NCBI GenBank assembly: GCA_045047305.1
Contig: JASFYO010000036.1
Span: 44,158 to 108,157 of the forward strand
Source: Planctomycetota bacterium
GTDB taxonomy: Bacteria > Planctomycetota > UBA1135
DNA: 64,000 nt
Direction: 5' to 3'
Of this stretch, positions 3,001-6,000 are shown in pieces. Numbering within the stretch: the stretch's first letter is position 1; each line of letters starts with the position of its first letter. The position numbers were made by a program.

Positions 3001-6000
3001 GGTGTGGAACGCCAGCGAGGTGCCCGTAGGAGAGAACAAGCGGTCCGTTTGGTAATAGGCTTGTCCTGCTTCTTGTGCGTGGTCCACCCACCACAGATTC
3101 CAACTGTTCTGGAAGAAGTCGCGACCGACCGACCATACCTGATCAGGATCCACCACCATGGGCCAAAAATAAATAGCCGTCAGCCCTGCGAAACCAACCA
3201 ACACCAGGAAGATTTCGCTAGCGGTGAGTTTCTGTCCTTCGTTCATGCCAGCAGTGCAGCGCCTAAGAGGTAAACCGCATGCGCAGCGCCAAGCACCGTG
3301 AGGTCATAAGGTTTCCACTGCCAACTTCGGCGCTTTCTGCGCATCACCCAAGCAATGCTTGCTGCTTCTATGTTCCAAAACCATAACCAAGCCGCCACAA
3401 GCGCCACAACCCAGCCTAAGGTGTTGCCATCTAACTGAGAATCACTGAGACCCAAAGCACCGGATGCATAAAGCACATAGCCTCCGCCTAGGCTGACCAC
3501 CCGCGCCAGCAATAAAAGTTTCACCGTAGGGCGGAAGCTACGCCCTATCGTGAACCAGATGACCCACCAATGCAGGAAAAGGACAATCGGGACCAGGATG
3601 GGATGAAGGCAGGCGTGGAACAGTTCCGCTAACGGGCTCACGCCAAGGCCTCCTGGCAACGCGAGCGTAATTCCTCGATAGTGAAGAGTCCGGTATCGTG
3701 GCCGTCATCGAACAGCACGCGATAAGCGTAGCGGCCGACGGGTTGCATATCCTTTAATCCAATGTCTTCCGGAACCTTTTCCGGATCCACTTGGCGCGCT
3801 CCGGTGATTTCATTCACGCAAAAAGCACAAGGGCAACTAATGCGTAACTCGCGAATGCCTAAGGCACTCACGAGTCCGTCCGACCAGGTAAACCTTAATT
3901 GGTCACCTTCCCGCTTTAGGCCGGTAAGCCGGGAGTCCATCGCCAAGCTCGACCTTCGAGGTCAGGCTTCCATCTCCCGATCTTCTTGCGGCGATTTATC
4001 GTAACGCGCACGCACATTTTGCCGACCCATGTCGCGCAAGCGCAGGGAAGACTTACGCAGCCCAAGATCATGCGCTTTGGAGACTACGCTTTTCACCGTT
4101 CGGTTTAAGTGATCGGCAATCGAAAGATTATCTTGTTCCGGGTAAAGTCGCCGAAGCTCCTCCACCTCCTCCGGACGCCAACGTGGCATCTTGACTGGAG
4201 GTCCAGAGCCAGCGCGGCGCTGGTAGCCCTTGTCTTTCGCTAGACAAAGTTCCTTCGCCTTTTCTTCGATTCGATCCGCAGGGCGGCCAAGGATTAACGA
4301 AACGTCTTCAGTGGCGCGGGTGCCATAAAAACGCTTCAGGAGTTGCAGGTCAGCCGATGTCCAAGCGCGCTGTTGCACTTCGCCGCGAAGCTGGTGCACC
4401 TTGCGTTCAATCTCTCCGACAGGTCGGCGCAGAATGCGGGCGATGACATCGAAATCCGTAGCGCCAAGATAGCCTTTCAGCTTGCGCACTTCCTTCGCTG
4501 TCCACGGGCCCATTTGGGCCTCGCCTTCAAAAACTTTGCCAATCATGCGGCGGACACTCTGCACTGTGCGGTTCAATTCCTGCGCAATCTGAACTTCTGT
4601 TTTGAAGCCATACATGCGTCGCAACCTTTCAATTTCCGGATAGGACCATCGTCCTTTCCGGCGACCTTGAGGGTTTGGGGAGTTCATTCCGTCAGATGCG
4701 GTCATCGCAGTTGATTCTCGCTCGGGTTCCAGGGAGCGGGGTGGGGTGTGGAGTCAAACTCCACGTGTGTTCCAGTATCAGACAATTCATGGCCTCCGTG
4801 CAATGAAAAATCGTGCTAAGTCTTGTGGGAACCTACGCTTTCGACAACTTTCTGCCATGCCTGCGAGGTCAAATCATCCAAAATGCCTAAAGCATCCTTA
4901 GATGTACTCGCACGCGCAGCCTGTCGCGCAGTTTCCCGTAAAGACTCAATATCGACCTCTCGCAGCAAGGCTTTAATTTCTGGGACAAAAAGTGGGGACA
5001 TGGAGAGGCCTCCAAAGCCCACTCCTGCGAGGAAAAACGCTCCTGCGGGCTGTCCGGCCATCTCGCCACAAACCGAGGCTGGGACGCCAGCTTCTTGGCA
5101 AACCCTTGCGATGTAACGCAAGACGCGCAAATTCGCCGGATGATAGGGTTGATACAAATCGGAGACCCAAGGATTATCGCGGTCAACCGCAAACAAGTAT
5201 TGAGTGAGGTCATTGGTGCCTACGGAAATGAAATCCACCTCCTTCACCAGGTCCGGCAAGGCCATGGCGGCGGCAGGAACTTCAATCATCACCCCAAAAC
5301 GCACGCCCAGGTCTTCCGTACCGGCGATCGCGTAGAGCAAATCCTTCGCTTGGCGCACCTCCTCCACCGTGGTCACCATGGGCAACATAATGTTGACGCC
5401 ACCATGCCCCCGGCATTCGCGCAATGCCTGCAGTTGCATCAGAAATAAATCTTGCCATTTCAAGCTCAAACGCAATCCGCGCCAACCCAATGCAGGGTTC
5501 GCTTCTTCCGGAGTGCTGAAGTAGCGAAGCGGCTTGTCTCCACCGATGTCCAGAGTGCGAAAGGTGACGGTTTTGCCAGGAAAGCAGTTTAGCACCGAAC
5601 TGTAGATTTCTTTCTGCTCCTCCACCGATGGGAAGGATGGGCGTTCCATATAAGCAAACTCAGTACGAAACAATCCAACTCCGCTAACCGTTTCCAAATC
5701 GAACATGTCCAAATCACGTGGCGACTCAATGTTCACCAAGATTTTGACTTCGGTGCCATCCGCGGTGTGTCCGGCTTCTTTTGCGGCATCGGCCAAGACA
5801 TCGCGTACGTGCGAGAGTTCCGAGGAGCGGGTGAGTGCAGCTTCTTGCTCTTCGGTGGTTGCGCCGAGAATGACCGTAGCGCTATCACCGTAAACCACAC
5901 AAGGTTGGCCAGAACGTGCCCGTTCATCGACTCCTTCCATACCGGTCACGGTTGGAATGCCATAACTACGCGCGATCACTGCGCCGTGGCTGTAACGTCC

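Follow-up and report, generated by a model that had tools for sequence, protein, structure and literature searches.

The window analysed here, a 64,000-nucleotide stretch of contig JASFYO010000036.1 from a planctomycete of the class UBA1135, carries a minus-strand gene (P0001, positions 3962 to 4705) for a protein of 247 amino acids with a pI of 10.1. The open reading frame and an AlphaFold model bear out the initial annotation, which had described four Trp-anchored three-helix repeats; the model of the four-repeat core (pLDDT 91.6, pTM 0.64) folds into four three-helix units. Repeat 1 (4526 to 4654, residues 18-60, anchored by W20), delimited by alignment and model, is missing in two-repeat forms of the protein that are encoded by phages, and repeat 2 (4382 to 4510, residues 66-108, W68) has the lowest mean column identity of the four, 0.57. 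Repeat 3 (4229 to 4369, residues 113-159, W115) ends in a conserved L-x-K-D-K and is present in all phage forms. Repeat 4 (4052 to 4189, residues 173-218) has an invariant MPRW arm with W176, aligns with the DNA-binding domain of GcrA and has a recognition helix (residues 202-214) that is the best conserved of the four. A C-terminal helix follows (3998 to 4048, residues 220-236, R-L-x-x-M-G-R-x-N-V-x-x-R) and is conserved in host and phage copies. All of these elements, like the neighbouring genes described below, lie on the minus strand.

Conservation was read from an alignment of 34 orthologues. Mean column identity is 0.73 in repeat 4 compared with 0.57-0.62 in the other repeats; a further set of loci was set aside when the third helix of repeat 4 was assessed, as they had been found by that very motif and their use would be circular. 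The four Trp had been called invariant, which is correct for W20 and W176 (34/34 each) and nearly so for W68 (33/34) and W115 (32/34). The pI is 8.8-11.6 in 33 of the 34 proteins and K+R is well above D+E in 32, the charge being that of the whole protein and not mapped on its surface. The protein matched no NCBIfam family. Longer, fused forms were not found among 8000 candidates, which the search tool itself rates as weak evidence.

The gene for PTS enzyme I, ptsI (4816 to 6570), lies directly upstream. Its product of 584 amino acids scores 411 bits against TIGR01417 (cut-off 341.7), has an intact phospho-His motif and contains no extra domain. Further upstream is a glyS-type class II tRNA synthetase gene (6579 to 8045), a neighbour found mainly in the family of the source genome and replaced by a Tex-like gene in family f10, and downstream is a GBBH-like_N (PF06155) gene (3638 to 3946) that occupies this position in the source genome's family only. 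The place behind ptsI, which the initial annotation had called fixed, was found in 79 of 80 loci, the lone exception being a second copy; ptsI is also present in all 48 four-repeat loci from metagenomes whose upstream sequence is long enough (16 further loci were too short). The adjacency persists while both flanks differ between lineages, and in six genomes the start codon of the four-repeat gene overlaps the ptsI stop; gene-order inertia alone explains this poorly.

In the source genome 110 nt separate the ptsI stop from the four-repeat gene, and this gap contains a promoter-like site (4774 to 4803) composed of TTGCAC (4798-4803), an 18-nt spacer and GATACT (4774-4779). The site is conserved among relatives. 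Promoter-like patterns were present in 24/25 and 19/25 loci against 0.8 and 0.04 in shuffled sequences, the patterns having been picked after the sequences were viewed. An earlier promoter score was barely above that of shuffles (median 10.5 versus 9.3), and a scan with a strict consensus did not list the site. In 79 and 106 upstream regions, k-mer counts and views anchored on the -10 element recovered only promoter and Shine-Dalgarno signals as motifs shared across families. A near-palindrome limited to one clade was also seen among these regions.

Both the 39 of 41 relatives and the 242 homologues counted previously were reproduced. In a larger draw, from which families f3 and f4 were absent, 200 of 201 class genomes had an orthologue. 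The description as a single-copy class gene thus largely stands, but eight of the 200 have more than one match, with real extra copies in at least four, and the gene is present in none of three genomes of family f3, one of them 96% complete, so it is not essential everywhere. Extra chromosomal copies adjoin ECF sigma genes in two genomes. The reported absence outside the class holds for full-length matches (0/377 phylum genomes), but not for weak, mostly single-repeat matches, which occur in 11 of the 377; small basic single-repeat relatives are present in other planctomycetes. In the gene tree, families f1, f5, f7, f8, f9 and f10, the last including its paralogues, each occupy a starred branch, which indicates vertical descent.

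The proximity to ptsI had led to the proposal of a regulator tied to the PTS. Such an output regulator of a transporter-less PTS would be bound or phosphorylated by enzyme I, HPr or EIIA and would link PEP or nitrogen state to transcription, with repeats 1 and 2 as the PTS-facing part. The conserved adjacency and the six overlapping start codons fit this, and the source genome, which is 88% complete, encodes HPr and three EIIA-2 domains with no EIIC or HPr kinase found, in keeping with the transporter-less system described before. However, the promoter-like site lies between the two genes, a STAS gene, not the four-repeat gene, follows the orthologous ptsI in two f3 genomes, and both phage copies and extra chromosomal copies stand without ptsI. 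No PRD, EIIA, EIIB or HPr-like domain was detected with Pfam at E<=1, and the apparent ptsI fusions, seen in two genomes as open frames of 922 aa, are spurious and GC-rich, with ptsI itself in another frame. H212, the only well-kept His, is replaced by N or S in 6 of the 34 orthologues, and one chromosomal copy behind ptsI (L293/L294) has lost repeats 1 and 2. A modelled complex of enzyme I and the four-repeat protein scored 0.00, which counts neither for nor against interaction. We consider a PTS output regulator unlikely and the case for any functional tie to the PTS weak at best; as part of the explanation favoured below, and with the same middling confidence, we read the place behind ptsI as old gene order and not as a sign of a PTS function.

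Each repeat of a eukaryotic Myb protein contains three regularly spaced Trp, as is also visible in the c-Myb sequence, and SANT domains have an acidic surface and bind histone tails rather than DNA. The initial annotation had compared the planctomycete repeats with both and had regarded the architecture as otherwise eukaryotic. The Myb-like character of the three-helix repeats is well founded: c-Myb (1h88) is the best PDB sequence match (E 2.9e-5 for the single sequence, 9.8e-6 for a profile) over three repeats including the linker, c-Myb R2 superposes on the model with Z 6.9 and an rmsd of 1.5 A, and Pfam Myb_DNA-binding is matched at E<=0.01 by 29 of 32 members, with the source copy (23.1 bits full length, 24.8 for the core) falling around the PF00249 gathering cut-off of 24.4. 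Myb-type chains also head the Foldseek PDB list at E 3e-3 or worse, neither model giving a row at E<=0.001. These matches might be taken to mean that the protein was acquired from eukaryotic multi-repeat Myb proteins or is ancestral to them. Yet in the alignment to 1h88 only the first of the three Trp is kept in each repeat, the repeats are about 47 aa long, and Listeria phage gp65 also passes PF00249, so the Pfam model does not separate Myb from phage repeats. The pI of about 10, a whole-protein value and not a surface map, also differs from what an acidic SANT surface would give. In fold, both models have the DNA-binding domain of GcrA as their best match among solved structures (Z 7.4 with an rmsd of 1.1 A over 45 residues, and Z 7.8), although these values are moderate and Tc3, SNAPc, Reb1 and c-Myb R2 do equally well. 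Far better matches come from repeat proteins of phages and bacteria, and a true kinship with eukaryotic Myb proteins seems very improbable to us.

The best family match is PHROG 323, 'transcriptional regulator, D5-like', with an E-value of 4.4e-27 over three stretches. Phages, plasmids and members of several bacterial phyla encode multi-repeat relatives, and the repeat, with its L-G-L-x-K ending, also occurs at the N-termini of phage HNH endonucleases (PHROG 1891, E 9e-8), with one protein (L212) having two repeats followed by an HNH_3 domain. For a two-repeat model the top Foldseek PDB row was the archaeal protein Cbp (PDB 2lvs, E 0.028). The view of the architecture as otherwise eukaryotic is not supported: the protein is not eukaryote-like and its repeat belongs to a large prokaryotic and phage family of 9,955 clusters. 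There is precedent in print, as the available text of PMC3597662 describes the repeats of archaeal Cbp1/Cbp2 as Myb/Pax-like and that of PMC7824862 already reports HTH factors of the Myb type from both bacteria and phages. For the four-repeat family itself no paper was found in the open-access literature, and likewise no text on T5 D5.

PHROG 323 contains the D5 protein of phage T5 (E 1.2e-71), and a D5 protein is the top viral fold match (E 4e-6). T5 D5 is abundant and binds DNA independently of sequence. By analogy with it or with Cbp1, the planctomycete protein could be an abundant, largely sequence-independent nucleoid protein that covers and organises DNA and that phages use to coat their own genomes; it is very basic, only one HU gene was found, and the single-repeat relatives in other planctomycetes are small and basic as well. 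Direct similarity to T5 D5 is nevertheless lacking (BLASTP E 0.29), GTG and TTG starts are common in f10, and a recognition helix that hardly varies is more in line with sequence reading. Codon use of the gene is at the 53rd percentile, against the 91st for HU and the 99.6th for EF-Tu, a weak test in a genome with small bias; such average usage suits a regulator. A nucleoid role is in our view improbable.

Members of the family borne by phages are a new observation. Eleven IMG/VR contigs encode them (10 distinct proteins, 38-48% identical), and their records carry the hallmark genes of terminase, portal, capsid, tape measure, baseplate and tail. Three copies have four repeats and eight have only repeats 3 and 4 with the C-terminal helix; the recognition helix of repeat 4 is retained. 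The computations mark repeats 3 and 4 with the C-terminal helix as the conserved core, which these eight contigs and a single chromosomal lineage keep on its own. Phage copies match PHROG 323 with E-values of 8e-16 and 5e-15. The seven distinct two-repeat phage proteins make up one side of a branch (94/89), and a second tree was computed without 11 rows that were near-duplicates or long branches; the host and phage gene trees did not recover a direction of transfer. A search of genome contigs with a two-repeat phage protein gave three loci and no prophage copy. The terminase of one phage had a single match, at 36%, in 301 class genomes; PF03237 terminase was not detected in five phage records, although PHROGs gave a terminase in one record.

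A primase gene stands immediately before four of the phage copies (L200-L202, L223), and three others are followed by a helicase gene (L199, L205, L215). Together with the T5 D5 gene, which lies between ligase and helicase genes and has been annotated as necessary for replication, and with the single copy kept across the class, this could point to a replication factor of host and phage that binds an origin or other replication site or assists primase or helicase. Other phage copies, however, adjoin tail genes (L203, L204, L221), in family f1 no replication genes adjoin the chromosomal copy, iteron-like repeats were not seen near the phage genes, and early phage regulators also occupy replication modules. 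A role in replication itself is quite unlikely in our estimation. Among repeats in phage DNA, one palindrome was seen; it occurs in a single phage record and not in the source genome.

The fold, the basic charge, the class-wide retention and the gene's own promoter-like site are established by computation, and the protein is likely a DNA-binding regulator. The explanation that we favour, with middling confidence, is a chromosomal, vertically inherited and monomeric transcription regulator, predicted to bind DNA through four three-helix HTH repeats of a prokaryotic kind, as in GcrA, phage D5-like proteins and Cbp1, with repeats 3 and 4 as its probable working core. The near-invariant third helix of repeat 4 would enter the major groove and read a fixed sequence, the basic arm and repeat 3 would add contacts to the backbone, repeats 1 and 2 may add affinity or a surface for a partner, and the C-terminal helix could make a second contact, with DNA or with RNA polymerase. 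Such a regulator might control something as central as replication or growth state, and this may explain the presence in unrelated tailed phages of copies that share its recognition helix, for which phiCbK-like phages and GcrA offer a parallel. In a bolder form, which we put forward as a rather doubtful speculation, the protein would be the lineage's master regulator of growth or the cell cycle, a four-repeat functional analogue of GcrA whose origin was a phage D5-like repeat domesticated at the root of the class. Repeat 4 would read one fixed DNA site, the C-terminal helix would engage RNA polymerase, and several unrelated phages would have recaptured the gene, mostly reduced to two repeats, a minimal form no longer under the host control exerted through repeats 1 and 2.

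Retention in 200 of 201 class genomes, no full-length copy elsewhere in the sampled phylum and an intact recognition helix in unrelated phages are together what one would expect of a central regulator. The GTDB taxon UBA1135 has been placed in the proposed 'Saltatorellota' (bioRxiv 10.1101/817700), and the lineage includes the cultured shape-shifting bacteria of that proposal. The four-repeat protein is small, and phages already define a minimal form of 120 aa, so that its target should be accessible by DAP-seq. The gene can also serve as a class marker and help link unassigned phages to hosts of the class. It should not be presented as a eukaryote-like trait of planctomycetes.

Among the closest known systems is GcrA of Caulobacter (PDB 5yiu/5yiv/5z7i), whose DNA-binding domain superposes on the repeat at 1.1-1.5 A over 45 residues, although the sequence match is weak (E 0.032 by HMM alignment). 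The GcrA backbone contacts W3, T32, K39 and H41 given in the available text of PMC5887438 align to W176, S/T203, K210 and H212, conserved in 34, 34, 34 and 28 of 34 orthologues, so that the Trp anchor and the K39 and H41 positions are kept. The base and methyl readers R33, N34, I37, G38 and R42 named there are not, V204, K205, V208, S209 and D/N213 standing in their place, and the methyl-pocket residues differ; with regard to a methylation reader, GANTC frequency is not unusual (0.89) and GATC is under-represented (0.61). GcrA, as set out in the same text (PMC5887438), has one HTH and a sigma-70-binding domain, whereas the modelled protein has four HTH repeats and one short helix with no such C-terminal domain. 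PF07750, the Pfam family of GcrA, is not matched by the source copy and is matched by 4 of 32 members at E<=0.01. PF07750 itself is present in 2 of 41 class genomes. Like GcrA, whose homologues are encoded by phiCbK-like Caulobacter phages according to the available text of PMC3556154, the four-repeat gene is a lineage-wide core gene that phages also carry.

With PHROG 323 it shares tandem HTH repeats, found there in phage proteins of 220-330 aa, and identity to the Listeria phage B054 gp65 and Acidovorax phage AP1 proteins is 26-28%; the MPRW, LxKDK and C-terminal helix motifs nevertheless set its subfamily apart, which is encoded on the chromosome and present almost throughout a single class. 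Unlike the PHROG 1891 endonucleases it has no nuclease domain. Cbp1/Cbp2 of Crenarchaeota are likewise prokaryotic proteins of tandem HTH repeats, Cbp being a DNA-binding monomer with two or three repeats in the portion of PMC3597662 available, but they have fewer than four repeats and bind CRISPR repeats in archaea, whereas no tie to CRISPR was seen for the four-repeat gene, for which no genome-wide search was made. The Myb-type HTH of RsfA-like proteins in Firmicutes and phage G is similar by description. Finally, c-Myb R1R2R3, SNAPc4, Reb1 and Cdc5 share the tandem Trp-anchored three-helix units and a G-x-W linker, but the four-repeat protein differs from c-Myb and other multi-Myb proteins in having a single Trp in each repeat where those have three, in its shorter repeats and in not keeping the Myb recognition residues.

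The gene at 3962-4705 (minus strand), an open reading frame encoding 247 aa, begins 110 nt beyond the stop codon of ptsI (4816-6570), the PTS enzyme I gene, which matches TIGR01417 above its cut-off. The predicted model of its 222-aa core (pLDDT 91.6, pTM 0.64) comprises four three-helix units; a short helix follows unit 3, and a long one stands at the C-terminus. The initial annotation held the four anchoring tryptophans to be invariant; among 34 orthologues this is true of W20 and W176 (34/34 each) and not quite of W68 (33/34) and W115 (32/34). The pI is 8.8-11.6 in 33 of these orthologues. 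Conservation peaks in repeat 4 (0.73 versus 0.57-0.62 for the other repeats), which has an MPRW arm and a near-fixed third helix and is followed by a conserved C-terminal helix. Two membrane-type open reading frames of 630 aa (1354-3246) and 138 aa (3243-3659), conserved downstream in the window's family, f1, have no significant Pfam or NCBIfam match, and a 229-aa Gly/Asn/Ala-rich frame lies at 10794-11483 (minus strand).

The reported presence in 39 of 41 relatives was reproduced, and a wider search found a match in 200 of 201 genomes of class UBA1135. Most have one match, as described earlier, but eight have more than one, with real extra copies in three of the five inspected and in a sixth genome. 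Among 401 genomes of the phylum, all 24 class members gave a full-length match and none of the 377 others did; absence elsewhere holds for full-length copies, and weak matches occur in 11 of the 377. Six of these were inspected and are basic single-repeat proteins of 66-80 aa resembling repeat 4. Very basic single-repeat proteins of this size in other planctomycete families (L078-L083, e.g. L078:1501-1701 and L081:1522-1764), conserved in family f93, are candidate small chromatin proteins; in three genomes a pair of large genes, methyltransferase-like by eye from sequence, flanks the gene. Within the class, family f3 gave no match in any of its three genomes, one of them 96% complete. The records of the 80 listed genome-contig loci bear the titles Planctomycetota or unclassified bacterium, with UBA1135 in one; the name of the class comes from this last title and from the initial annotation. 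In the gene tree f1, f5, f7, f8, f9 and f10 (the last with paralogues) each occupy their own starred branch, as expected from vertical descent.

The position directly behind ptsI was confirmed in 79 of the 80 loci, the sole exception being a second copy, and it persists although the flanks of the pair change (glyS and a GBBH-like gene in f1, Tex-like and dnaE2 in f10). In six genomes the start codon overlaps the ptsI stop. Such fixity would suit a protein acting as an output of the PTS, a reading that we nevertheless regard as unlikely. The gap is mostly 80-250 nt and contains a promoter-like site, in the window TTGCAC-18-GATACT. With patterns chosen post hoc, 24 of 25 glyS-type gaps have [CG]ATACT (0.8 in shuffles) and 19 of these 25 have the full pattern (0.04 in shuffles); of 54 other gaps, 34 have a TAnnnT-type box (8.3 in shuffles). 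Moreover, the f3 enzyme I falls within the class, beside those of f7 and f9 (support 94/96), yet ptsI is followed by a STAS gene in the two genomes in which it was observed. Paralogues and phage copies occur without ptsI, enzyme I itself is ordinary, and no fusion of the two genes was found. Of the proposed regulator tied to a sugar-free PTS, what stands is the fixed place and the failure to find EIIC or HPr kinase in the window's genome (88% complete), which has HPr and three EIIA-2 domains; the functional tie is unlikely.

Several neighbouring observations may be recorded here. In f3 the usual place of the gene is taken by the STAS (anti-sigma antagonist-like) gene and then a receiver-like gene (L273:1378-1758; L286). 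The window's genome has TTGCA-N18/19-[CG]ATACT at six places, which may be the housekeeping promoter form of its family, an hpf, EIIA-2, HPr and RNase E/G cluster distant from ptsI (L168; C5:69282-72713), and a second, distant enzyme I-like gene (C74:18668-20362) with 26% identity over most of its length. GATC is under-represented in this genome (observed/expected 0.61).

The repeats do resemble Myb: of all PDB entries c-Myb matches best by sequence, and PF00249 is hit at E<=0.01 by 29 of 32 members. Even so, true kinship with eukaryotic Myb is very improbable, as only the first of the three tryptophans per Myb repeat is retained in the c-Myb alignment and repeats of this type are widespread beyond eukaryotes. 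The view that the architecture is otherwise eukaryotic is not supported. The protein matches the "D5-like" phage profile PHROG 323 (E 4.4e-27), of which T5 D5 is a member, with no direct similarity to T5 D5 itself. Multi-repeat relatives came from 6 phage and 19 plasmid records, and a profile search returned 9,955 clusters at E<=0.001, which carry no taxonomy and in which as many as 11 stretches match in one array. Neighbouring clusters in the Atlas belong to Pseudomonadota, Bacillota and other groups. Among viral structures a D5 protein matches the fold best (E 4e-6, versus 3e-3 for SNAPc and 7e-3 for c-Myb). In a wide structural search the DNA-binding domain of GcrA, the Caulobacter regulator, leads for the host model (Z 7.8, tied with Tc3, SNAPc, Reb1 and c-Myb R2) and for the phage form (Z 7.4). 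Tandem Myb/Pax-like repeats are published for archaeal Cbp1/Cbp2 (PMC3597662), as are Myb-type HTH factors of Firmicutes and phage G (PMC7824862). Unnamed proteins of 450-900 aa (P0144, P0165, P0173, P0178, P0182, P0192) are built almost entirely from repeats of this kind, with a maximum of about 17 counted by eye, and a phage HNH endonuclease (L212:5803-6777) has two at its N-terminus. Neither the repeat nor its use in tandem is new; we found no account of the subfamily, its class-wide fixation or its phage forms in the open-access literature, and the main text of the "Saltatorellota" preprint (10.1101/817700), which takes in UBA1135, does not contain the word Myb.

Scans of IMG/VR yielded 11 phage contigs that together encode 10 distinct members of this particular family (in one scan, 9 of 25 pattern matches), all retaining the LxKDK, MPRW, helix-3 and C-terminal motifs. 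Four repeats are present in three of them (L199, L205, L215), which form long, deep, unresolved branches; eight have the minimal core of repeats 3-4 with the C-terminal helix (L200-L204, L221, L223, L239), and the seven distinct proteins of this form make up one side of a branch (94/89). Among the 109 of 121 called ORFs scanned on these contigs, terminase, portal, capsid, tape measure and polymerase genes fall in a single record, with baseplate, portal or tail genes in others. Primase or helicase genes adjoin seven copies and tail genes three; in the stretches examined L223 has a primase and L215 helicases only. That the protein is a replication factor we consider improbable. A metagenome scan added two further two-repeat forms without ptsI, one adjoining a tail-like gene. 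It also gave a copy that is chromosomal and lies behind ptsI (L293/L294:2069-2887), with a Pro/Ala-rich stretch in place of repeats 1-2. One phage record contains the palindrome TTGACAC-N-GTGTCAA, probably an operator, at five places (L210:4841, 9995 and 12071; L258:5863; L259:7870) and none was found in other loci or the window's genome; an array of tandem 15-nt units in a phage record (L254:1986-2428) is probably a pentapeptide-repeat gene. Extra chromosomal copies lie beside ECF sigma genes (L268:3073-9425, L269:5218-9547, P0128): in one genome two stand in tandem, with genes for an ECF sigma and a Ser/Thr kinase downstream of them, in another a single copy and the gene for an ECF sigma fusion converge, and P0128 bears a 257-aa N-terminal extension, sigma-like by eye, with no Pfam match.

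We give about even odds to the protein being a global transcription regulator. A nucleoid protein is an unlikely alternative: in codon use the gene is average, at the 53rd percentile of 1,903 ORFs (HU at the 91st), which by this weak test is more in keeping with a regulator than with a bulk nucleoid protein. DNA would be bound through repeat 4, whose recognition helix is fixed across the class and the phage copies, implying a fixed target. The closest comparison is with GcrA. Its backbone contacts W3, T32, K39 and H41 (PMC5887438) align with W176, S/T203, K210 and H212, whereas its base readers R33, N34, G38 and R42 (PMC5887438) align with V204, K205, S209 and D/N213; from these residues, repeat 4 would dock as GcrA does but on another sequence, without a GcrA-type methyl pocket. 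Phage carriage of such a regulator also has a precedent, itself a proposal, in the GcrA of five of six phiCbK-like phages (PMC3556154).
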